A stretch of DNA of 64,000 bases from Naegleria gruberi. Taxonomy: Eukaryota. Of the stretch, positions 29,759-63,772 are shown piece by piece. The DNA lies in assembly GCA_000004985.1 (NCBI GenBank), contig GG738845.1, one strand, 5' to 3'. Position numbers and translations under genes: made by a program. Each line of letters opens with the position of its first letter. Positions within the stretch are counted from its first letter, which is position 1. The notes below the pieces were generated by a model. That model made no database searches. It was given only the letters and a program-made list of their open reading frames with translations, and was not told the origin of the DNA.

Positions 29759-30120
29759 CAGCACCTCCTTTTTAAACGTCTTGGAAATATTTTGTTCTTA
29801 TTATACCACAGTGCTATCAATAATGGAAGAAATTGTAACGGTTGGAGGGTAGTGTCTGTAAGGCGTTCAAATAAGGGTGTGGATTAATTTTTTAAGAATT
29901 AAAATTCATTTATCTAAAAATTAAAAAATTACATATTTTGCGCTACCCAATTAATTAATAATTTTATTTGAAAATTATTCAAGAACTGTTTGAACTTTTC
30001 CCATTTCTATTGAAAACATTCTGGTAATTCAATATTCCACTAATTTAAAAATATCGAAACTTTTTTTAGGAAATCTATTTACAAATTTATTTACATTTTT
30101 TAAATTTTCTTTTTACACCT

Positions 30121-49979: not shown

Positions 49980-52900
49980 ATGCAGGCATCCCCGAAAGCA
50001 GCAAAGGAACGAATTAAGGTGTTTGCAAGATGTAGACCAGTAATCGAAGAAGAAAAAAAAGGGAATGATTGTAAATCTTGTGTAGAAATAAAAGGAAATG
50101 AAATTAAAGTGAGCAGACCTAATCATCAGCCTAAAACATTTTCTTTTGACGGAATTTTTGGACCAGATTCAACCCAGGAGCAAGTTTTTAAAACTGTGTC
50201 CTTGGATGCAATTGAGGTTAGTGTGATGTTTTTGGACGTTCTAACAAGAAAAGGACGTTTTTAATGGTTATCACTCTACAATATTTGTGTATGGACAAAC
50301 CGGTACTGGCAAGGTATGTAGTAACACTGATTGAAGACTTATTTATTTAATCATACCAGACAGTAAGTTTTAGAATTATTCCAGCCATTCCTATTCTTTC
50401 CAGCATACTCTTAGCAATATTGATGATTCACAACCAGAGGAACATGGTTTAGTACCAAGATGTGTACAAGAAATATATAGACGAATTGATAGTGATATCA
50501 ACAATGAATACCGTGTCAGAATGAACTATCTTCAAATTTATATGGAAACACTGCAGGACTTGCTGCAGCCTGACCACAAAAATCTGCAAATTAGAGAAGA
50601 TCCAGAACTTGGTATTTATGTATCAGGAATTTGTTTTAGAGATATCAAAAATTATGAAGAATGTATTAAATATTATAGAGAAGGCGATGTAAATAGAGTA
50701 ACAGCACTAACAAAAATGGTAAGTTTGGCTGGAATATGTATTAACAAGTTTAGAATGCGTCCTCGAGTAGAAGTCACTCTTGTTTAATAATTAATATACA
50801 AAAGTCCAGTAAGTTGAATGGAAGAGAAGAATTGGAGGGATTGGAAAAAAAGAAGGTTACAACTGCAAATTTATTTCTTGTTGATCTAGCTGGAAGCGAA
50901 AGATTGAAAAAAACAGAAGCTGAGGGTATAAGAAAAAAAGAAGCCAACTATATAAATCTTTCACTGACAACTCTTGGAATTGTGATTCATAGTCTTGAGG
51001 CAAATCATATTCACATTCCCTTCAGAGATTCAAAATTGACAAGATTATTACAGGACTCACTTGGGGGAAATGGAAAAACAAGAATAGTTATAACAATAAG
51101 TCCAAGTATTATCAACAGCCAAGAAACTATTGGAAGTTTAATGTTTGGTGAAAGAGCCATGAATGTGAAAACAGTTGCAAAGGTCAATGAGGCTGTGGAC
51201 TATCGAGCATTATATCTTAAGACAAAAGCTCAATTAGATTCATTAGAAGAAAAATACTCTGAACTTGAGGAAGACTACTTGGATATTACAAATGAAAATG
51301 ATAAAATGGATATTGAGATTGATTCCCTGCTAGAGGAAAATAAGAAACTTGTTAAAGAAAAAAAGATTTTGGAGAAAGAAAAAGAAAAGGAGAAGGAGAA
51401 AATCGTTTCTTTGATGAAGGGGGATCTTTTGGATTTGGAGAATCAACATGAGAAAGATATTGCAGAACTGAATGACAGACTTCTTTCTGTTTCGAAAGAG
51501 TATGAAAATGATTTTCAAAAGAAAGAGGAAAATTTAAAGAAAATACTTTTTGAAAAGGATAATGATATTGATAGGTTAGAACTATTAGTTCAAGAATTGA
51601 CAAGTGATAAAACATTTTTGGAGGCAGAATTCTCAACTAAAGACAAAGAAATTGAAAATTTAATTGCTTCAACACACCAAATGGAAAGAGATTTGGAAAC
51701 GGCCTCATATCTATGTATTAGAAGAGAAAATGAGCTGGAACAAGTTCAAGAATTAATTCAACAATTGGAAAAACAAATAACTACATATAGAGAAACAATT
51801 GGTAAAAACGTTGATGAAATTGAATTGTTGAAAAGAAAGATTCTTTTTAGTACTGAAGAAATGGAGAATGTGACAAGGTTGAAACAAGAAAGAGAAGCAG
51901 AATTGGAAAAAGAAAAAAGATTTAATAACCAACTTAAGGATGATATTGAATTGTTAAATAATCAAAATACCAAATTGGAGGAGAGACTTGAGTTTGAAGT
52001 GGCTGACAAGGCTCTCCAAAAAGAAATGTTTAGAGAGATTTCAGACAGAGAGTTGCTGAAAGAAAGAAAAATATTGGCAATTACTAAAGAACAGCATCAA
52101 GTTGAACTGGAACAAATGGAGGTAAATATTGAAAAGCTCACAAAAATGGTTAACGAAAAAAATGAAGAAATTGAGGAGAGAGGAATTGATATTGACAAGT
52201 TAAAATTGATGTTGTTCGAAGAACAAAGAGAAAGGGAAAACGACAAAATGGAACTACTGTTAGAACAGGAAAAACAAAGAACTGAAAAGGAGTCTATTCT
52301 TATTGAACTGCAATATTACAAAGACAAGATCGAGGAATTCACCTCCAAAGTTTTCAGCACACCTAATAACACAACTATTATTAATATAGTAGAAGAAACA
52401 AGTGACCCAAGTTCAGTTTTACAAACTCCTCCAACCCCAATGATAGAAAAAGTTCCAATTTTTGATTTTGGAAAAATAGTTAATGTTCAAACAAGTATTA
52501 TCAAACGACATGAACATCAATTTTTCTCTCTGATAATCAAAAACCTCATTTCAGAGCAACAAAGAGATAAGTTAGTTTTGGTAATTAACAAATTAACGAA
52601 AGAAAAAGAAGGATTACAAAAAGAGCTCCAAAAGATCGGATATCAATTAAAGGAATTGCATACTGATATTTCAGAGTTGTTTGCTAACTCTAGATTCCTC
52701 CATGATGACTTGAAATCAACATCAGAATTGTTTGGAACAAACCTCCATCAAACACTGTTCGAAAAGCAAGGTCATTCAAGGAGTTTTGATGTTATTAACG
52801 GAGAGCTAAAAGACTTAAAGTTCATCTCTAAAAAGTTTAGGGATGAAAGCCCAGATGAGGCAGCATTTGATGCCATAAACTATATGGTATGGGCTCTAGA

Positions 52901-54173
52901 ATATTCTCATCCTTATTCGTCATTGTCTGACAATCTTCTGGGAGAAGAAAATTCCAAAGAAATTATCAAATCTCTGCTTGAAGAAAGTGAGAAGCGGGTG
53001 AAGTCGTCCAGTAAAACCTCTGCCGAACACACTCTAGAAATTGACTGCATATGGAAGCATGTAAAGAATTCATTGGACTGTTTTTATGATTCGTCAACAG
53101 ATAATTACAAAACTGTATTGAAAGAACTGGACTGTGAAGAATACTACAAGTTATACAATAACTTTATCAGAAAGAAAAATGCAACAATTGAACTGGAGGA
53201 ATTAGCTGAACTGCCATATTCAATTTATGAAATACTATCCGATTCCAGAATCATGGTCTCTAAGACAAGAAATAATTGTTCAGAAAATTCTGACATGTTT
53301 AGATTAATGTCTTTCTGGTTCTCCATGAGTAGTAAATGTCTTAAAAAGGTTTTGAACAGAGAAGAAATCAATCACAAAGCAGGGGTGTATTTAATGCACG
53401 AGTTTATTCATCTCCTTCATACAGTTAGAAATGTTTTATATCTATTTGATTGTTCGGAAAGAGACGTTTTGATTTACAAATTGGCTCTTCATGGATGTGC
53501 TTCGAAATTATCTAAGTTTATTAACTCTAGTGAAGAAGTAAGAAGAGAAATGGAAGATAGAATCGCGTCATATGAAGAATTGAGAACAAGAACTGAGGCG
53601 GCACTTGTGATACAGAGATTTTACCGAAAGACAAAGAGAAGAATGCAAGAAGACTTTATTCGAAAGCAAAGAACCGAATTGATAGCCCAATCACAAGCTC
53701 AAATGGTAAAGATCAGAGAATTACAAAAATCCGAGTTGACCTTTAAAGCTAGCGTGGGAAAGCAAATTGCGGACACAGGAAGAGTTCTTATCAAACAAGG
53801 TGTATCTGAACTGGATCACATTTTCAATATTCTAAAGGCGTATTTTTTATATGGAGATGATGATGATACACCCTTAACACCCTCCTCTCCAAGAACAAAT
53901 ACCTCCAGAGCTAATAGTATTATTTCACCAAACTCGCCAGTATTAACGACACCAGAAAGAAATAGATCTGGAAGCCTTTCGCCCTCGCCACCAAATCCGT
54001 TAAGGGAAAATTTTGGGGGAAGACCAAAATCAACCGTTTCAAGAGCATACAGCAAAAGGTTCTCTGAGGTTGATGTGGCAGAAATTAATGACATTCTCTC
54101 CAATACTAAAGTTTCTCCAACAGCAAGAAAAGTCTTGGAAAAGTCTTTACCCCCAAACATGACAAAAAGGTAA
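49980..54173 (+). CDS. Kinesin-like protein with an N-terminal motor and a very long coiled-coil stalk/tail (about 1326 aa). Exons: 49980..50225, 50263..50322, 50413..50718, 50805..54173. The last intron is uncertain.
   Basis: Motor motifs IKVFARCRPV, FSFDGIFGPDSTQEQVF, GYHSTIFVYGQTGTGK|HTL, …LVDLAGSER (switch II), HIPFRDSKLTRLLQDSLGGN. The ORF-track starts at 49950 (GTG) and 50814 (TTG) are alternative codons. Confidence 0.7.
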
Positions 54174-54264: not shown

Positions 54265-55656
54265 ATGAAGTTGCTTCTTGCTTACTTAATTATTTTTCTA
54301 GCAGTTGTTAGTAGAGTTATTGCTTCATCAGGTTGTATTCTCAACAGAGATGGTAACTGTGGGATGACATCAAATGCCGCTGGGGAATTGCTTCTATCTG
54401 TTGATCCAAAACAACAATTTAACACTTTTATTAAATCATCATCTGTGGGAAATAATGGGGAAGTTATCTGCAGTACCCCTAATAGTTTCATTTCCAATCC
54501 GTTATGTAAGGAAAGATGGTTTAGAAAAGCACAACACGATAAACAATTTGCCTCCAATTCCCTAAAACTGAGATGTAATATTGATGTTGTTAGGGGCGAT
54601 TGTCAAATTGGAAATTTGCATTTTCCTCCAGAAAATCAATATAAGTTCTATCATAATGATAATCAAGAAACTCATATCTGTTCATCAATCCAAGGCTACT
54701 ATTCAAATCAACTTTGTAAAGAAAAATGGTTTAGAAAATTAACATTATCCCAGCACTCACTTCTTCCTACTAGTGAAACAAGCATTCCATCCTCAATTGT
54801 TTCTCATGAGGTCAATAACATTATTGCTATCAGTTCAACTTCTCAAACCCCATCTGATGTAATTGATTTAGCGGCTTCAACTACGAACAATGTTGAACTC
54901 ACCAATGAACCTCATTTTAATACTGATCTCACTCACGACTATGATATAGTTACAGAGTTGGCAGAGGCTTTTGAGAACAATGATGAAGATGATGAGTTTG
55001 ATGAATTGGAAATTGATGACTCAGACGAAACAGATGTTGATGAAGGAACTGAACTTGTTGAGGAATTACAAAGTGAGGATTCAAACGAAACAGATATTTC
55101 AGAGGAAGAGATTCAAGAAAATGCTAATGACAACACTGGAGATGATTTTAATAATGAAGAAGAAATTGACAACAAAGAAACTTATATTGAAGAGGAAGCA
55201 GAATCCGTATTTGAAATTGATGAAGAGGACAATGTTGTCCACAATGCTGCCGATAAGCCAATCCCTTCTAATGAAATTACTAATTCTTATACCAAGGAAA
55301 TTGAAAAAACACTAAAAGAAATAATTCCCTACATCAAGAACAAACCAAAAATTGTAAATTCTGTACCATATATTCAATCCGCTACAAACGTTTCTGGCTC
55401 AATTGGTAAGGTAAACATCAAAACAGTAATTAACACTGGAAATATTAAAAATAATAGACATCACCACAAAAGGATTTCCAAAAAAAACCAAAGAAAGCTG
55501 CCACGTGTGGGACGCGAGAGAAATGAAGTGAATCAAATTACTAAAGCTGTGAAAGAAATTGAAGAAAATTTGAAATCAAGAAAATATATTGAATCCAGAA
55601 AAGAAGAATTGAAGAGGAGATTTAAAGAATTCCTTCTTAATTCACTCAGAGTTTAA
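54265..55656 (+). CDS. Secreted protein (463 aa) with a signal peptide, two Cys-containing CKE[RK]WFRK repeats, a Ser/Thr-rich linker, a highly acidic D/E block and a basic C-terminus.
   Basis: MKLLLAYLIIFLAVVSRVIASSGC… signal. Repeats …ICSTPNSFISNPLCKERWFRKAQ… and …ICSSIQGYYSNQLCKEKWFRKLT…. DEDDEFDELEIDDSDETDVDEGTE… then KNNRHHHKRISKKNQRK. Confidence 0.55.
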   Translation: MKLLLAYLIIFLAVVSRVIASSGCILNRDGNCGMTSNAAGELLLSVDPKQQFNTFIKSSSVGNNGEVICSTPNSFISNPLCKERWFRKAQHDKQFASNSLKLRCNIDVVRGDCQIGNLHFPPENQYKFYHNDNQETHICSSIQGYYSNQLCKEKWFRKLTLSQHSLLPTSETSIPSSIVSHEVNNIIAISSTSQTPSDVIDLAASTTNNVELTNEPHFNTDLTHDYDIVTELAEAFENNDEDDEFDELEIDDSDETDVDEGTELVEELQSEDSNETDISEEEIQENANDNTGDDFNNEEEIDNKETYIEEEAESVFEIDEEDNVVHNAADKPIPSNEITNSYTKEIEKTLKEIIPYIKNKPKIVNSVPYIQSATNVSGSIGKVNIKTVINTGNIKNNRHHHKRISKKNQRKLPRVGRERNEVNQITKAVKEIEENLKSRKYIESRKEELKRRFKEFLLNSLRV

Positions 55657-55700
55657 TAATATTTATTAAGAATAACTGTCACTCTAATTGAATAAATTCT

Positions 55701-56528
55701 TTATTTGGTAATCAAGTAAGGAGTATCTTTTGGAAGGTAGGTAATATTTTTTGCATTTGATAGTGTACTTGCAATTTCCTTACTAGCTTCAATTTTTCTC
55801 AATTCAATTAAACCAGAACCTGATTTGGTCATTGCATTAGATATCATTTGAGCAGCTATGGCTTCTCCTTCAGCCAAAATAATAGCTGCCTCCTTTTCGT
55901 ATTTTGATTTTTCAACAATAAAAGCTTGTCTTTCAGCTTCTTGCTCTGCTACTTGTTTCATTTCAACAGCTCTTGTAAATTCCTTACTAAAACTCAAGTC
56001 AGTAATTGAAACATCAACCAGATCAATATGGAATTTTTGTAATGCTCTTTCTCTGACCATTTTTTGTATTTCCTTTGAAATTTGTTCTCTTCTCTGTATA
56101 ATTTCTTCAGCCTTGTATCTAGCAATAACAGCCTTCATGACTTCATTTCCGACAGATGGTAAAATACGTTCATCATAATCTCCACCAAGATCTTTATAAA
56201 TAACTGGGAGTTTTTCGACAATAGGACGATGTAAAACTCTCAAAGTAATATTTACAGTTTGTAAATCTTTTGTTCCAGTCTTGGTTGTGATTTCTCTTGG
56301 ACGAACACGTACATCAAAAAAGATTGGTTTTTGGATGAACGGAATTTTAAAGTGGGTTCCTTCCCCAGCAACATAATCATCACGAATACCACCATTTACA
56401 TAGTCCATAAGAATAGCTCTCTCTCCTCCATCCACTGTGTACAAACAAGATAATCCCAATCCTAAAACTGCTGTTGAAGCAAAGGTAGCATATGTCATGC
56501 CTTTCAAAAGTTTGTCCAAAGCTTGCAT
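55701..56528 (-). CDS. PHB2: Prohibitin-2 (PHB domain, mitochondrial inner membrane), 275 aa.
   Basis: N-terminal TM, then DGGERAILMDYVNGG…FKIPFIQKPIFFDVRVRPREITTKTGTKDLQTVNITLRVL…QVAEQEAERQAFIVEKSKYEKEAAIILAEGEA. Collinear with PHB2. Confidence 0.9.
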   Translation of the reverse strand: MQALDKLLKGMTYATFASTAVLGLGLSCLYTVDGGERAILMDYVNGGIRDDYVAGEGTHFKIPFIQKPIFFDVRVRPREITTKTGTKDLQTVNITLRVLHRPIVEKLPVIYKDLGGDYDERILPSVGNEVMKAVIARYKAEEIIQRREQISKEIQKMVRERALQKFHIDLVDVSITDLSFSKEFTRAVEMKQVAEQEAERQAFIVEKSKYEKEAAIILAEGEAIAAQMISNAMTKSGSGLIELRKIEASKEIASTLSNAKNITYLPKDTPYLITK

Positions 56529-56599
56529 TTTCCGAGAATATTTTTTTAGAAAATTTTGATTGAATTTTCAATCAATAAATTATTTAATAAACCAATTGT

Positions 56600-57560
56600 T
56601 TATTGCAAATGAAATGGCAAGGTAATTGATTTTCCTTTGTAATTTTCTAAATTTTCTCCAGCAAAAGACACAAGAGGAGAAATTTCACACAATTCCTTCT
56701 TGCAATCTCCAATAATGTTTGCTCCTGCTCTTTCAAGGTACTTGGTGTGGAGCACGGATACATCCTTTCTACAGGTCTCTGGTGAATCACTATTGTTTTG
56801 ATTAGGAGCGTTTTTGAGAGGGGAAAATTCAGATTCTCTTTCTACTTGGAAAATTGTAATAGAGTTGGCAAATTCAACAATGTCAAAATTGAACAATTCA
56901 AGCTTTACACCTGCTTGTTTCTTCTTTTCTCCTGAATTGATATCAATAGATTCGATATCCTTCTTTGCAATGTGATAGAGTTTGTGTGTATTTAAAATTT
57001 GAGCACATTTTTCTAAAAAGTCCAAAGTATAGAAAAAGTTAACAATATTTCCAGCATTGAATGAAAGTTGTCCAGTTGTTTGATCAACACTTTCAGCCAT
57101 TTCCTTTGTAATTTCACTGTATTCCACAACATGGTATTTTCCATTTCTCAAAGCAAAAACGCCAACTTTTTCATGAGGCTCTCTTTTTGGAACAACCTTA
57201 GTTCCAAAATCTACACAATTCTTTACGCAATGTCCAACAAATTTTGGATCTCCAACCTTAACAAGTATGTTATCGACACAATATGAATGAATATATTTGA
57301 TTCCTCTCTCCTTCATATGATCTAACATTCCATATTTTGCCAAAGCCTGGTACACTCCTCCATTACCATTTGGTGCAGTAGCTATCAAATTTTTTTCTTG
57401 CAACATTAATTTTCCGTCCATAGAAAAGCATGGAAGAGTACCTTGTTGGAAGAATAAAATTTGGTCTTGACANNNNNNNNNNNNNNNNNNNNNNNNNNNN
57501 NNNNNNNNNNNNNNNNNNNNNNAGTTCAAAGAGCTCCTTTATGGATGTTTGTGATGACAT
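56600..57560 (-). CDS. UAP1: UDP-N-acetylglucosamine pyrophosphorylase (UAP1/QRI1), interrupted by a 50-N assembly gap.
   Basis: MSSQTSIKELFE… before the gap. After the gap: …GNGGVYQALAKYGMLDHMKERGIKYIHSYCVDNILVKVGDPKFVGHCV…VVPKREPHEKVGVFAL…VVEYSEI. The N-terminal catalytic part (L(X)2GXGTXM, DGQ motif) is missing because of the gap. Confidence 0.8.
57473..57522. other. Assembly gap (50 N) inside the UAP1 coding region.
   Basis: Run of exactly 50 'n' characters. This is a conventional scaffold-gap placeholder of unknown true size. Confidence 0.99.
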
Positions 57561-58107
57561 TTTTTTTTAAATATTAAATAATCCCACAAAATTCTTCCAG
57601 ATGGCTTGTGGGCAGTGTTTGATTTTGCTCCCAATTCAAATGGCTGCATGATGTCGTTTATTATTGGAAATTTAATTTGGAGAATGATCATCAAACAACA
57701 AATCCCAACACAATCAACTGCCAATAAGAAATCAACTTCAATTTCTATCTACTCCGTAAATAATATGACAACCTCTTTTATTAAATTACTAGAATATTCT
57801 GACAATAAGAAAAATACACTCAACCTTATTATGTCAAATTCAAAACTCATCCAATATCTAAACTCTAGTTCCAAACACAAGTACTTTGCTTCTCCAATAC
57901 TCTTTACTCCATCACAAACTACTTTAATTACCAAACATGCATCCCTTGTTAAAATCAAAACTCACACCAGTTTTGCTATTCATTAAAGGAAATACAAGAT
58001 CCACCAAGGAAAATTAAGATATTCAAAATTACTCATTATTTATACTCTACTTAAACTTTAATTATAAAACAGGCCACAAAAGACCATTAGACATTGAAAA
58101 AGCAATA

Positions 58108-58968
58108 CTAGACTTCCGGAAAAGTCAAAAAGAAATAAAAAGGCGCCTTTTTAAAAAAGTGGTTTGAAAAATGTTTGAGCAATTTTTGAAATTTGTTTGA
58201 GCATAATTCAAGAAATGTTTAAACCTTTCCTGCACATTTATTGAAGCTTTCTTTTTCCTGATGTCAACATTTTCTTTACTGCATTTGCTGAAGTTGAAAG
58301 GTTCCCTAATCTTGCTGATTCTATTGTTGATGGAACGGAAGATGTTGAGGAAGTGGAAGAAAATCTTAATGAAACACCATATTCTGAATTAAGCATAAAA
58401 CAGGAACAAGAAAAAAGTGTGAAACAATTAAAAATCCAGAAGAGGAAGATCTGATTTGAACATCACTCCACCCAGAAAGAGAAAAAACCTGAACCTTATC
58501 AAAAAGAAAACAATCATCAAATCATCATGCCAAGAAAAGTTGAGGAGCTCAAAAGACCAGAGCTTTCAAAAGATTTCGTGATTGATGTAAAAAAATCCAT
58601 CAAAACTACAGTGACCCGAGATGGTGACATTCAAAAACCTTGGATCTCTTAAGGAATTGGTGGATTTTTTGGAAAAGGATATAGTTAAGAAAGAGAGTGA
58701 GTTCAGAAGTTTGAGGGCCCTTGGGGTTTTTTCAGCAAATACTTGAACGTTTTGAGAGTTGAGAAGTAATTAATCATTCTTGAGGAATTGTTTGAAAACA
58801 GTTTGAAAGTTGCTCAAGATTTTCTTGAACAAACTTTGGATGTGTTTCAAGTAGTTTTTAGGTAAAAAAGGCACCTTTTAGGCACCTTTTAGGCGCCTTT
58901 TTGCAAATTAGCGTGAAAGTACCTTAAAAAAGTCGACTTTTAGCAAAACTTTTTCTGGAAGTCTACTA
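58108..58968. mobile_element. About 860-bp non-coding element bounded by long imperfect terminal inverted repeats (MITE/foldback-like relic). It contains the 'A' repeat.
   Basis: 58108-58230 (…gacttccggaaaagtc…aaaaaggcgccttttt…gtttgaaaaatgtttgagcaa…) is the reverse complement, with indels, of 58790-58968 (…ttgctcaagattttcttgaacaaac…aaaaaaggcacctttta ggcacctttta ggcgccttttt…ctggaagtctac). Only a 41-codon degenerate ORF lies inside. Confidence 0.4.
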
Positions 58969-59335
58969 AAGAAAAAAATGAAAAAAAGAAAGTCTATTAA
59001 AAAAGAGTTGTACTAAGAAATCAAAAAAAGAAAATCTGAGAATATTGGTTAACTATTAATTGATCTTGAGTTAATGATGATGATTAAATATAAATGTGTA
59101 CATTATTTGTCAAACCTGTTCCAGAAAACCTTAAGGCTTCATTCTTTTGAATTGTTTATACTTTATCAACTTGACAGAAAGTACAAAAAACATCAAAAAA
59201 AAAACATTTCTAAAACCATATAAGCTTTTTATTGTGATGCAATAAATTGTCTGTTGCTTTTTACGTCATTGTATTCTTAAAGTTGACCAATTATCTTCAA
59301 GCAGCTCAAGATTTCTCCTCAAACTGACTCAGACA

Positions 59336-60185
59336 GAGGGGATGGAAAATCCTCGATCCAAATCCCACGCGGATCAGTCGGATCCAAGATTCCAATAAAA
59401 ACGTGAATCCTGGATCCGGATTATCCGATAGATTCAACACAAGGATTTTTTAAAAATTACTTAATTATTGTTGTTTACACTTGCTTTAACCGAAAAACAA
59501 TCTAGTTCTTCGTAATAAATTGTGAAATTTCTTGTAATGTCTGATAATTGGTAAGTTTCTTAGTTAACAGCAAAAGTTCTAAGCAATACTCGATACTCTG
59601 AAAGCTTATCGCTGCGGCTTAGTGCATACAATTTACCTTGTTTCAATATTATCAGTTCATCATTTAAATTAATATCTTCTGATTCATTAAATTGAGAAAG
59701 TATTTGGGAAGATAATTAACTTGTTTCTGAGCAAAGTTGTAATTGTTTTTGTTTGTCAAATCTTCTAGCTCTTACCAACATCACACGAGTACTTATTTGC
59801 AAAAGTAAGATGTCATCTTTTTCCATAAACATAGATACAAGTCTTGATTTTAATTCTTTAGCATCTTTACCAATTCCTGAGAGTGGATTTTCTAGTAAAT
59901 CATAGCTCTTTGTAGCATTAGATATTTTACAATTTGAGGGGAGAGTAAAGTAATCATCACGAATTGGACAATAGAACTTTTTCTTTTGGGTTGATTGGTT
60001 GTGGTGATGTTTCTCTTTATTTATTAACGTTTGAAATTGTTCCATTAAAAATTGGAAGTGCAATCCTGGATTATCGGTTCCATCTTTTGAAAGATTTTAG
60101 AAAAAGATTCATTGTTTATTAAAAAATAATCCTTCCCATCCTCCTCCAAAACGTGAGATTTGGCTTTAGGATTTTCCATCCCCTC
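59336..60185. mobile_element. About 850-bp element flanked by a 37-bp terminal inverted repeat (core GAGGGGATGGAAAATCCT) and enclosing a 115-codon ORF (59716..60063, minus strand). Candidate non-autonomous DNA-transposon relic.
   Basis: Left end 59336-59372 gaggggatggaaaatcctcgatccaaatcccacgcgg. The reverse complement of the right end 60149-60185 is gaggggatggaaaatcctaaagccaaatctcacgtt. That gives 18/18 core identity and about 31/37 overall. No obvious target-site duplication. Confidence 0.4.
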
Positions 60186-60435
60186 CTTCAACACTAATTC
60201 TTCTATTTCTACTAGTACGTTAATTGCAATTACTTATTTTATAATTTTATCAACAACAAAATAAGATGTCGTTTCTGAAATACTAAGTTTATTCTATTAC
60301 ACGCGAGTAGATTAATTCGCAAGAATAATAATAATGATTGAGGATATCATTAATCAACTTTTGTATAATATATAAACTCTAATACTTCAAAGATTTATAT
60401 CCTTTAAAGCAGGTTCCAAGGTTGATTCACTCGTT

Positions 60436-60600
60436 GGTATCTCAATCCTTGAGCTTTTAATTCATTTGTCTTATTTTATTATTTTATTATTTTGTGAGTT
60501 TAAAAACACTAATACTTCTAATAGTTGCAACTACTAGCCCAAAAAACCATCTAATCAATTCAAAAAACCTTAAAAACCATAAAAACAAAAAATACTGAAA
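60436..60600. repeat. Dispersed repeat 'B', copy 1 (direct repeat of 62068-62340).
   Basis: ggtatctcaatccttgagcttttaattcatttgtcttattttattattttattattttgtgagtttaaaaaca…tctaatagttgcaactactagccc…accatctaatcaattcaaaaaacc matches copy 2 at about 85-90%. Confidence 0.6.
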
Positions 60601-61208
60601 TATCTGAAAACTTGATAACTAATTCTCTATAGCTTCAATCAATCTTTACATAAGCAACATCAATCACACCACCAAAATCGCAGTAAGCGTTAAGCTTATG
60701 TAGGTTTATTGTAAAAACAATAAAATAAGTGTCAACTAACAAATTTCTCATTTGCAAAAATGGTACATTTCAATAGAAATTTCGGATTTAGTAAGTCAAT
60801 AATTTTTTAATAATTTATTATTTTATTGGATTTCATTTGATCATATCTAATTTGGTGAGGTCAAATGACATTTTCATTTGGATAGCTTTTGTAGTATTGT
60901 TTGGTAGTGGATATCACTATCAAGAAAAGATAGGATCATTTGTTGAGCTGGTTTTTTAATCAAATATGTGAAAATTCTAACAATTTTATATATGATTTGT
61001 GTGTTTATTTAATTTTTTAAATTTAAAGCACTGCTAATGCCAAGGCGATTAGTGATTGATTTTGAAAGCAATTAATAGATCATCTGAATTTTCTATTGAC
61101 AGAAACGTATTTTAGTAGTTCAGTTCTACCTAGTTGTAATAAACACCGGAAATTTATTTATGTTTTTAACATTAAAAGCTGAAAGTAGTAAAATGATGAT
61201 ATTTGAAA

Positions 61209-61235
61209 TATATATATATACACATATATATATAT
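61209..61235. repeat. (TA)n / (TATACA) microsatellite.
   Basis: atatatatatacacatatatatatat. Confidence 0.7.
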
Positions 61236-62067
61236 TTTAATTGATGTTTGACAAACATATCCACCACATGTATGAAAATTCGTATTTTTCATTGAAATAC
61301 TAATAAATTTCTATTTTAATTACTGCCAATTCAAACAGGCAACAAACGACACACATTATCACATTATCAGACATTGTAATAGCAAATGCTAAACCTTTTG
61401 TTGTTTATAATATGTGAAATCTGTAGACAGAAAAAAATGAAACACAGTTTTTAAGAAGAAATCATCGAAAAACTCAAGTAAAATGAAGAATAGAAAATCA
61501 CTTTTAAGGGGTAAAAAATTTAATCTGAATAGATAAATGAATTTGCGAGGAATTATGATGAAAAGGATGTAGTGAGAATGGGATTTGATAAAGAGATAAG
61601 TAAAAAACATGATGAGGAGTATGATGAAGAATAAAAGAGAAATGATTTTTCTAACATAGATAAATATAATTTTTGTTCACATATATTCACCCAATAATTT
61701 ATCAAAACAATAAAATACCCCAAATCAATTCTCATATCACAACAAAATAAATTGTAAAAATATACAAAAATTATATTCAAACTCGAATTTAGATCTACAG
61801 TATTTCAGAAACGACACTTTATGTTGTTGATAAACCTATAAATTTGGATTTTTAGTTTTTTACAATTTTATATGATTTGTGTTTATTTAAAATTTACGGT
61901 TAGAGAGGAATTTTGGATATTATAGTACACTCGTTGTTGAGGTGTTCTTTTTGTCATCATCAGTAAGTGTAATCAGTATGGAGATTCTAGTTGGATATTA
62001 TTGACAGCAATTACAAAAAGTACTTGTTATTATTATAAGACAACAATGGATTAGTGGGATAGTTAAG

Positions 62068-62340
62068 TGGTGTCTCAATCTTTGAACTTTTAATCTATTT
62101 GTCTTAATTTATTATTTTATTATTTTGTGGATTTAAAAACAGAGATTTATCCAAAAAGCCAAGCCAAAAATTCAACCAGATTGTCCTTTTTAAAAAGCCA
62201 TATCCAAAAAAAGCGGTTTGGGATAGATATTGGATATTAATATACTCTCCTTCTAATAGTTGCAACTACTAGCCCATTAAACCATCTAATCAATTCAAAA
62301 AACCATAAATTAGAAATCCAATAAAAACACAAAATAATAA
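62068..62340. repeat. Dispersed repeat 'B', copy 2, with an about 95-bp internal insertion relative to copy 1. A shorter 'C' repeat pair lies nearby (60975-61025 and 61855-61895).
   Basis: ggtgtctcaatctttgaacttttaatctatttgtcttaatttattattttattattttgtggatttaaaaaca[insert]ttctaatagttgcaactactagccc…accatctaatcaattcaaaaaacc. Confidence 0.6.
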
Positions 62341-63173
62341 AATAATGTTATTATTATTTGTTTGAGAATTAAAAATTTCAATTTATACGAGACAACAATT
62401 TGTTCTTAAGAGAATAAAATTTGAAAACCATATTCCACACAATATTGTTTTATTGTTGGAAAGTTTGATACTATTTTTCTAAATAATAACAAACTCAGTA
62501 ATTAGTGGAGATGTTATTAATTAACTAATTGATAAAATTAATCGGTGAAAGATAATAGAACCTAATATTTTGACCATATATTCTGGAATAATCGTTCAAA
62601 TACAGCAATACACAACCAACGTTTACCTTTTCAATATCTCTCCTTTACGAATTAGACAAAAGCATGCCTGTACTAGTTATAAACAATCATAAATAGTTTT
62701 CAAAGAAAACCAAGTTGGTGATGTTTAATTCGAAAGTGTATTGAAGAAAGTGTTTACATGAATTACTTAGAGAATTGAAATAATTAAAAAAGGAAAAACA
62801 AACCAAGCCTTATACAAATATTTAAAATTAATTCATCATGCATTTTATATGTATGATGATGTGGATTTAAAAACGAAACAATCTACCAACACTTTACAAA
62901 TAGTAAAATCAAAACTAAAAAATCATTAGAAATGTTGGAGGAGTGGGATGATATTTTTGAGGATATCAATAATACAAATCTTAGTATTACCATTTTATTT
63001 TCATTGTCTATATGTTTTGCCTACACTTTTGTATTATCGAATTATTTAGAGAAAAAGAATTGTAATTTTCAAAATATATATATTAACGATTGTATTTACA
63101 ATGGTAATACAAAGTAAATGGATTTTGTTTGGCGGAGGAGTCGTGTGGGATTTGGATAACAGATTTTCCATCG

Positions 63174-63430
63174 CATCATGCTAAGAAAAGTTGAGGCCTA
63201 AAAGACCAGAGCTTTCAAAAGATTTCTTGATTGATGTAAAAAATCCATCAAAACTAGGATGGTGACATTTAAAAACCTTGGATCTCTAAGGAATTGGTGG
63301 AAAAGCATATAGTTAAGAAAGAGAGTGAGTTTAGAGGTTTGAAGGCACTTAGGGTTTTTTCAGAAGTAATTAATTATACTTGTAAAAAAGGCGCCTTTTA
63401 GTAAAACTTTTTACGGAAGTCTAAAATAAC
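63174..63430. repeat. Second copy of the composite A+R repeat unit (copy 1 is 58522-58968). It carries internal deletions and lacks the left inverted arm.
   Basis: catcatgctaagaaaagttgagg…agaccagagctttcaaaagatttcttgattgatgtaaaaaatccatcaaaact…ggtgacatttaaaaaccttggatctct…agttaagaaagagagtgagtttagaggtttgaaggcacttagggttttttcag…aaaaaaggcgccttttagtaaaactttttacggaagtctaaaat is collinear with 58522-58735 plus 58862-58968. Confidence 0.6.
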
Positions 63431-63772
63431 CATTCAAACTTTAAACAACAAACACCAAAATTCAAAAACACCTCTTTAATACTTTTGACAATAATATTAT
63501 TAAATGTATTACAAAGGTTTTTGAATTCACAAGCCCATTAAATTTCAAAATCAAGTTGTAAATGATGGTGAATGGTATTTCTGATATTTCGCACACTTGG
63601 TCATTTTTATCGTTGAGTTATTATTTATCTTTCCACCTTTCTATTTCGGCATTCCCTTCCAATTAGACTCTAGTTTTGTCCAATCATCACGTCCAATAAT
63701 AAATAATAAAATAATATTTTTATTTTAAAAAAAAAATCTCCAACAATATCCATTCATCACCAACCACAAAAG

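Follow-up and report, generated by a model that had tools for sequence, protein, structure and literature searches.

The closest described counterparts of the locus analysed here are non-autonomous DNA transposons with terminal inverted repeats (TIRs), that is, elements like the miniature inverted-repeat transposable elements (MITEs) and in particular those of the Tc1/mariner-derived Stowaway type, which have TA targets. The locus is a 6,212-bp block (57561-63772) between the UAP1 gene on the minus strand and a dynamin gene of Naegleria gruberi, with divergent transcription on its two sides. It was analysed within a stretch of 64,000 nucleotides of contig GG738845.1 (assembly GCA_000004985.1), which is called the window throughout and to which all positions refer. 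One repeat unit of the block, named E1, resembles these transposons in its short length, its TIRs, a terminus that is sharp at three ends, its subterminal motifs, the lack of a transposase, ends that abut TA and the presence of a truncated copy nearby. It differs from MITEs in that its repeats are imperfect (60-68%, with indels), in that the TA is not demonstrably duplicated and in that neither a related transposase nor other copies were found in the material searched; at 857 bp and with a relic open reading frame (ORF) it is also larger than classical MITEs. E1 may be a MITE-like or some other non-autonomous TIR element, and its features allow no specific superfamily to be claimed.

The block can further be compared to the graveyards of transposable elements of compact protist and fungal genomes. 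Like these, it consists of truncated and abutting element types at one permissive intergenic site, of similar age and with no intact coding sequence; it differs in being very small (5.3 kb), in comprising four families only and in that the relic ORF of a second unit, E2, resembles a cellular orphan rather than a transposon protein. This ORF is also similar to processed or unprocessed pseudogenes of lineage-specific families, as it has homologues over its core but is damaged by a frameshift, a stop within the frame and the loss of 14 residues. Ordinary pseudogenes, on the other hand, lack what is seen here, namely 34-nt inverted repeats on both sides that take in the start codon of the ORF. Small regional centromeres, such as those of Plasmodium, diatoms and Cyanidioschyzon, share with the block the appearance of a gene-free, AT-richer stretch of a few kilobases in a gene-dense chromosome, but the AT enrichment of the block is no greater than that of the spacers in the window and nothing ties the block to kinetochore proteins.

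A repeat content of 5.1% is reported for N. gruberi (PMC6125883, Table 1). Most of these repeats are unclassified, as only 0.28% can be assigned to a known class of transposon (bioRxiv 10.64898/2026.06.24.734286). The sparse 5-methylcytosine of N. gruberi concentrates on repeats, just a small fraction of which could be classified as known transposons (bioRxiv 10.1101/2025.04.15.648976). Given these figures and the methylation of mostly unclassified repeats, an unclassifiable patch of approximately 5 kb is to be expected in a 1.5-Mb scaffold, and the block appears to be ordinary genomic debris that would not surprise a specialist.

A candidate insertion between UAP1 and dynamin

We propose, with a probability of roughly 0.55, that the block is a cluster of decayed non-autonomous inverted-repeat elements and pseudogene debris, which a cut-and-paste insertion of E1-family DNA brought into a normal spacer and which nesting, truncation and duplication later reshaped. 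The block would be non-functional, decaying DNA within the divergent promoter spacer of UAP1 and dynamin. Two inverted E1-type ends bracket 5,315 bp of it (Table 1), and without this segment a spacer of 548 + 349 = 897 bp remains, somewhat above the largest gaps elsewhere in the window (444-682 bp). It is these bracketing ends, taken together with a residue of near-normal size, that suggest an insertion. An alignment of the left and right bracketing ends shows agreement in 39 of 57 columns, the perfect palindrome among them. The termini of E1 begin TAGACTTCC, and this terminal motif was found in the window at 58109(+), 58965(-) and 63423(-) only. When both ends of E1 were aligned with the right end of its truncated copy, A2, the similarity of the three ends was observed to start exactly at TAGACTTCC, with unrelated flanks, and all E1 ends abut TA.

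The extent of the block was evaluated with a coding score, a codon log-likelihood trained on 17 long ORFs of the window. Judged by this score, approximately 80% of the window consists of coding-like ORFs. The longest stretches of the whole window without such ORFs (3,613, 1,267 and 706 bp) all three fall within the block, where they are separated by the only two short coding-like ORFs inside 57539-63709, at 58245-58451 and 59719-60096. Elsewhere in the window, the longest gaps without coding sequence measure 682, 586, 495, 490, 465 and 444 bp, which amounts to a roughly ten-fold contrast in size between the block and the other spacers. The longest stop-to-stop ORF of the block has 134 codons. 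No Pfam family was matched at E≤0.1 across the six full-frame translations of the block, no tRNA was found in it with ARAGORN, and Rfam gave no match in it at gathering score, nor at E≤1.

These results agree with the first-pass annotation of this DNA in that no convincing gene lies between UAP1 and dynamin, and the block is the sole long non-coding compartment of the window. The gaps of 26-190 nt that had been given for the remainder of the window were an underestimate, as spacers reach approximately 0.7 kb. Of the flanking gene starts placed at 57560 and 63773, that of dynamin coincides with a Dynamin_N domain, while that of UAP1 is supported by just 12 residues beside an N gap. All of the multi-copy repeats that had been listed were recovered by blastn self-comparison and alignments, as were two inverted-repeat-bounded elements of approximately 860 bp (58109-58965, 857 bp; 59336-60185, 850 bp). 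A TA microsatellite had also been listed; the tract is present at 61208-61235 but it is short, interrupted and below the threshold of Tandem Repeats Finder.

Within the 64 kb, the A, B, E2-arm and E3-arm repeats occur in the block alone and do not recur in 1-57500. All repeat pairs are 84-89% identical, and the relic ORFs of E1 and E2 each carry just one stop and one frameshift, which suggests events of similar, moderate age that were followed by neutral drift.

The insertion would have involved one or more non-autonomous elements of the E1 family that entered a TA in an original spacer of approximately 0.9 kb, and the empty site prior to insertion would read ...GCAATAC-TA-AAATAACC.... The TIRs of E1 begin TA-GACTTCC, and the 14-nt palindromes within them would be the likely binding sites of a transposase. 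The block itself encodes no transposase; mobility would have depended on an enzyme encoded elsewhere. E1-bounded DNA now spans 58109-63423. This segment would then have gained, or would already have carried, E2, E3, the duplicate of B (170-280 bp) and A2 with a solo E2 arm. The structures themselves are all present, and the fusion of the solo E2 arm to the truncated A2 points to nesting and truncation. Transposition, TA as its target and the order of the events are proposed from the arrangement of the sequence.

Several observations weigh against insertion by an E1-type element. The TA at the E1 ends is inseparable from the repeat itself, and the left and right repeats of E1 are just 60-68% identical, with indels. 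The start codon of the E2 ORF lies inside the E2 arms; transposon ends do not usually have this feature, whereas it would be expected if the 5' end of a gene had been duplicated in inverted orientation. The 8-mers flanking E2, CTCAGACA and CTTCAACA, a candidate target duplication, agree at 5/8 positions. No copy of the repeats was found outside the block, neither in the remaining 57.5 kb nor in collections of viral, metagenome and prokaryote sequences.

Among the scans of these collections, those of viral contigs gave either no match or five matches, as many as a 17-mer may produce by chance. Metagenomes, scanned for the E1 end, returned four loci that matched only the pattern itself, and two scans of prokaryote genomes returned no match. 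Six-frame searches of the block at E≤0.1 detected neither a transposase (DDE, hAT, MULE, PIF or other) nor a reverse transcriptase or integrase. Word-indexed protein searches with the coding-like fragments of the block, against a database that includes the annotated proteins of N. gruberi, came out empty. Pfam searches with single fragments of the block gave sub-threshold noise (Guanylate_kin, E 0.036; URGCP, E 0.001) far below the cut-offs, ten exact look-ups of ORFs of the block and their variants found none present in a collection of 15 billion proteins, and sequence searches of the PDB with these ORFs gave no match.

The block had initially been described as a transposon graveyard or an accessory island. 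Inverted-repeat units, truncated copies, sharp E1 termini, palindromes and the bracketing of 5.3 out of 6.2 kb fit the former description; the lack of a transposase and the part made up of dead genes do not, so that this description is supported in part. The repeats may also prove to be unique to the locus, which had been named beforehand as contrary evidence. The latter description was not upheld, as the block has a GC content of 28.5% compared to 30.3% for the other spacers of the window (range 24-35%) and shows no foreign or viral signal.

For annotation, the analysis means that a conspicuous hole in a gene-dense region of N. gruberi is decaying repeat and pseudogene DNA and not a missed housekeeping gene, and four unclassified repeat units now have defined borders and consensus ends. 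Should copies of E1 turn out to be dispersed, the transposase responsible might be traced through the termini and the palindromic motif of this family. If the locus proves to be methylated or bound by CENP-A, it would make a handy and well-delimited test case.

Table 1. Features of the block and of its borders (window positions; sizes, strands and remarks where available)
Feature	Position and size	Strand	Remarks
Proposed inserted segment	58109-63423, 5,315 bp		bracketed by inverted E1-type termini TAGACTTCC ... GGAAGTCTA
E1	58109-58965, 857 bp	+	terminal inverted repeats of ~45 nt at 58109-58155 and 58925-58965
E1 relic ORF	58245-58743, ~166 codons	+	one in-frame TGA at 58452-58454, one +1 frameshift near 58650
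Palindrome AAAAGGCGCCTTTT	58138-58151, 14 nt		perfect; within left E1 repeat
Relatives of the palindrome	58866-58879, 58928-58941 (AAAAGTCGACTTTT), 63386-63399		≤2 mismatches
Half-palindrome tandem AGGCACCTTTT x3	58869-58901	+	adjoins right E1 end; Tandem Repeats Finder: period 11, 3.0 copies, 95% matches
A2	63174-63423	+	5'-truncated, internally deleted copy of right half of E1; ends at GGAAGTCTA terminus
E2	59336-60185, 850 bp	-	34-nt inverted arms at 59336-59369 and 60152-60185, 88% complementary
E2 pseudogene	59563-60176	-	frame from ATG 60176 shifts into 59719-60096; in-frame TAA, then 59563-59715
Solo third E2 arm	63142-63177	-	adjoins start of A2
E3	60238-61842, 1.6 kb		25% GC; inverted arms at 60238-60284 and 61799-61842; holds B copy 1 and the (TA)n tract
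Repeat B, copy 1	60435-60602	+	85-89% identical to copy 2
Repeat B, copy 2	62068-62344	+	direct; 100-bp insertion relative to copy 1
(TA)n tract	61208-61235		(AT)6-ACAC-(AT)6, from sequence
UAP1-side spacer	57561-58108, 548 bp		A/C-rich on the + strand
Dynamin-side spacer	63424-63772, 349 bp		without repeat by blastn self-comparison
UAP1, C-terminal part of UDPGP	56600-57472	-	Pfam domain
Dynamin	Dynamin_N from 63773	divergent from UAP1	Pfam domain

E1 and its truncated copy

Every E1-type end holds the palindrome AAAAGGCGCCTTTT or a variant of it. Allowing for up to 2 mismatches, this palindrome had 4 matches in the window, all of which are in the block, at an expected number of 0.47, and none out of 100 shuffled sequences reached 4. 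The variant AAAAGTCGACTTTT differs from AAAAGGCGCCTTTT by two symmetric substitutions and remains a perfect palindrome. Such palindrome-preserving changes hint at selection or templated repair, which might for example act through a dimeric binding protein. The hairpin potential of the E1 ends was not significant (z = -1.9, -0.3 and 0.1).

Repeat A, which relates E1 to A2, is direct and was recovered by blastn as 58523-58735 versus 63174-63363 (84% over 213 nt, E 8e-60) and as 58925-58965 versus 63383-63423 (88% over 41 nt). The two copies, A1 and A2, differ by indels of 1, 2, 9 and 10 nt, and the similarity of A2 to E1 stops exactly at the shared terminus.

The relic ORF of E1 comprises 58245-58451 and 58455-58649, which are in the same frame and are split by the TGA, and 58615-58743, which continues after the +1 shift. 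In the alignment with A2, the frameshift corresponds to an indel of 1 nt that A2 does not have. Over 58245-58451 the codon score is 0.27 per codon. The relic has no start codon, and no homologue was found in Pfam or in protein and PDB sequence searches. By inspection, this ORF and that of E2 are pseudogenes.

A weak similarity of 57 nt was also observed between the interior of E1 (58189-58245) and an intergenic spacer at 29960-30014 (77% identity, E 5.6e-5). This could be a tiny E1-related fragment or a chance match of AT-rich sequence.

The E2 unit and its pseudogene

Each E2 arm holds an ATG and about 11 codons (MENPxxKSH), and a search of the window with the motif of the arms gave 3 matches, where 0 were expected. 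The ATG at 60176, within the arm, opens 43 codons before the frameshift. The ORF of E2 has the best coding score of the block, 26.9, compared to a maximum of 18.5 in 300 shuffles; altogether 8 ORFs of the block score at least 9, where 0.7 would be expected from shuffled sequence.

An exhaustive HMMER search of 1.84 billion representative proteins returned two distant homologues of the central ORF of E2, P0135 (235 aa, E 6.4e-6) and P0136 (185 aa, E 3.7e-5), both 42% identical to it, intact or near-intact, and uncharacterised. The three sequences share the conserved core KEKH(W)N...K(Y/F)YCP(I/L)R...F.L....(K/R)ISNA...Y..L, from which the copy in the window lacks 14 residues. The relic in E2 is a disrupted representative of this small family of orphan proteins. 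No relative of the family was found in Pfam, PHROGs or the PDB, and its AlphaFold2 model was unusable (mean predicted local distance difference score, pLDDT, of 45).

P0136 is encoded on L014, a 3.5-kb contig of 32% GC from run ERR1078381. This run was deposited as a metagenome and contains a contig (L001/L002) that is 99.8% identical to window positions 55235-57077 over 1,845 bp, from which it follows that DNA of N. gruberi or of a near-identical strain was present in the sample. The origin of L014 is nevertheless unproven, since the protein collection contains no twin from N. gruberi of the ORF that neighbours P0136. No E2-like inverted repeats were found on L014. The P0136 locus (L014 369-1128; contig k127_196992, ERZ929261/ERR1078381), which holds the closest homologue of the relic in E2, is not in one frame either but changes frame at approximately 571-578, and the N-terminal 69-aa ORF of this homologue aligns with the N-terminus of P0135. 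The split may be either an assembly indel or the mark of a second decaying family member. The neighbouring ORF on L014 is 427 aa long and has a weak F-box-like match.

E3, repeat B and the core of the block

The arms of E3 were recovered by blastn with 87% identity over 47 nt (E 1e-7), and no target-site duplication was found in its flanks. E3 and both copies of B lie in a core of approximately 3 kb (60186-63141) that has a GC content of 25% and holds no coding-like ORF.

Alternative explanations

As the main alternative, we regard it as possible, though rather unlikely, that the block results from a purely local history with no mobile element, in which one or two small lineage-specific genes between UAP1 and dynamin were duplicated, partly inverted and pseudogenised, the inverted repeats being local inverted duplications, for instance of the 5' end of the E2 gene, and no transposon ends. 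Such a history is consistent with the restriction of all repeats to the block within the window, and the similar identity of all pairs (84-89%) is compatible with one complex rearrangement. It is also favoured by the ATG and 11 codons carried by the E2 arms, by the cellular-looking orphan family to which the E2 ORF belongs, with a homologue on L014 that is not flanked by inverted repeats, and by the lack of a transposase in the block. The order A1-B1-B2-A2, in which both pairs are direct, is however impossible to obtain from a single tandem or inverted duplication. The sharp E1 termini at three sites, the palindromic subterminal motifs and the tandem array of half-sites also speak against local duplication, as does the position of the E1 ends on both sides of the entire insert, outside which a spacer remains that is near the largest found elsewhere.

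It is improbable that the block holds one or more real but unannotated genes, spliced or for small lineage-specific proteins, or long non-coding RNAs and that what look like pseudogenes are errors of the Sanger assembly or genes with unrecognised introns. The coding-like signal above that of shuffled sequence, the homologues of the E2 ORF, the fact that two corrections suffice to open each relic and an assembly gap 40 bp from the block would all be accounted for in this way. Inspection of the sequence nevertheless revealed no GT..AG intron of plausible length that mends the E2 frameshift or the in-frame stops, and the relic of E1 has no start codon. The indels by which A1 and A2 differ (1, 2, 9 and 10 nt) show no coding constraint, the ORFs of the block are unmatched in a protein database that holds the annotated proteins of N. 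gruberi, and some 3 kb (60186-63141) are devoid of any coding-like ORF.

A more unusual origin was considered as well, namely that the 5.3-kb segment is the remnant of an undescribed cargo-carrying DNA transposon of Heterolobosea, in which two orphan ORFs, one of them from the KxYCPxR...ISNA family seen in two environmental contigs, take the place of a known transposase, or else that the block is an unmapped Naegleria centromere; this pair of proposals we consider quite improbable. Taken separately, the idea that the block is a chromosomal functional element, be it a small regional centromere or a replication origin, is very improbable. The block is the sole gene-free stretch in 64 kb, its core at 60186-63141 has 25% GC and the flanking transcription is divergent, as would suit such an element; moreover, centromeric DNA is unmapped in Naegleria, for which only imaging of CENP-A and CENP-C has been reported (bioRxiv 10.64898/2026.08.18.745565). 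On the other hand, the GC content of the core is within the ordinary range of spacers in the window (24-35%), a repeat content of 5% in a 41-Mb genome (PMC6125883) implies many such blocks as opposed to a few dozen centromeres, and Tandem Repeats Finder disclosed no satellite or other distinctive signature.

A decayed long terminal repeat (LTR) retrotransposon, with A1 and A2 as LTRs and a dead gag-pol in the 4.2 kb between them, is hardly credible and was rejected: direct repeats of 250-440 bp that lie 4.6 kb apart and give approximately 4.9 kb overall are of the right order of size, but the six frames gave no sign (E≤0.1) of a reverse transcriptase, an RNase H, an integrase, a protease or gag despite a repeat divergence of only ~15%, the A copies neither begin with TG nor end with CA, and 58109-58155 forms an inverted repeat with the right end of A. 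An integrated viral element or foreign island was likewise rejected, given the spacer-like GC content and the lack of matches to the block in PHROGs, Pfam and blastn searches of phages and plasmids.

Flanking genes and spacers

The long ORFs of the window match SET, Kelch, DEAD-box, Sec16, Nup120 and kinesin domains and are eukaryotic, and its GC content is approximately 33% throughout. A prohibitin ORF at 55701-56528(-) is identical to XP_002683453.1/EFC50709.1 of N. gruberi, which is encoded on a scaffold of 1,555,553 bp, and has 91% identity to the N. fowleri protein; this exact match places the window in the nuclear DNA of N. gruberi NEG-M. An N. fowleri-like contig and a Willaertia magna contig (L003 and L004) were queried with UAP1, dynamin, kinesin and a 463-aa ORF of the window, none of which matched; prohibitin is thus the only one of the tested genes shared with these contigs, which indicates that N. 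gruberi and these relatives do not have the same order of genes around prohibitin.

The spacer adjacent to UAP1 is probably the promoter and 5' region of this gene, while that adjacent to dynamin is probably the dynamin promoter. An open frame of 134 codons in the former (57582-57983) is not coding-like, at 0.068 per codon compared to 0.16-0.45 for real genes, and protein searches returned no homologue for it. A gap of 50 N (57473-57522) is situated inside the coding region of UAP1, 40 bp from the block. The C-terminal 290 residues of UAP1 span only positions 128-339 of the Pfam UDPGP profile, approximately its C-terminal two thirds, and the reading frames on either side of the gap differ, so that some 170 N-terminal codons of UAP1 are absent from the assembly.

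The kinesin ORF (50814-54173(+), 1,119 aa) enters the motor-domain profile, which has 327 positions, only at position 219. One or more upstream exons must accordingly encode the initial two thirds of the motor, so that the kinesin gene contains an intron.

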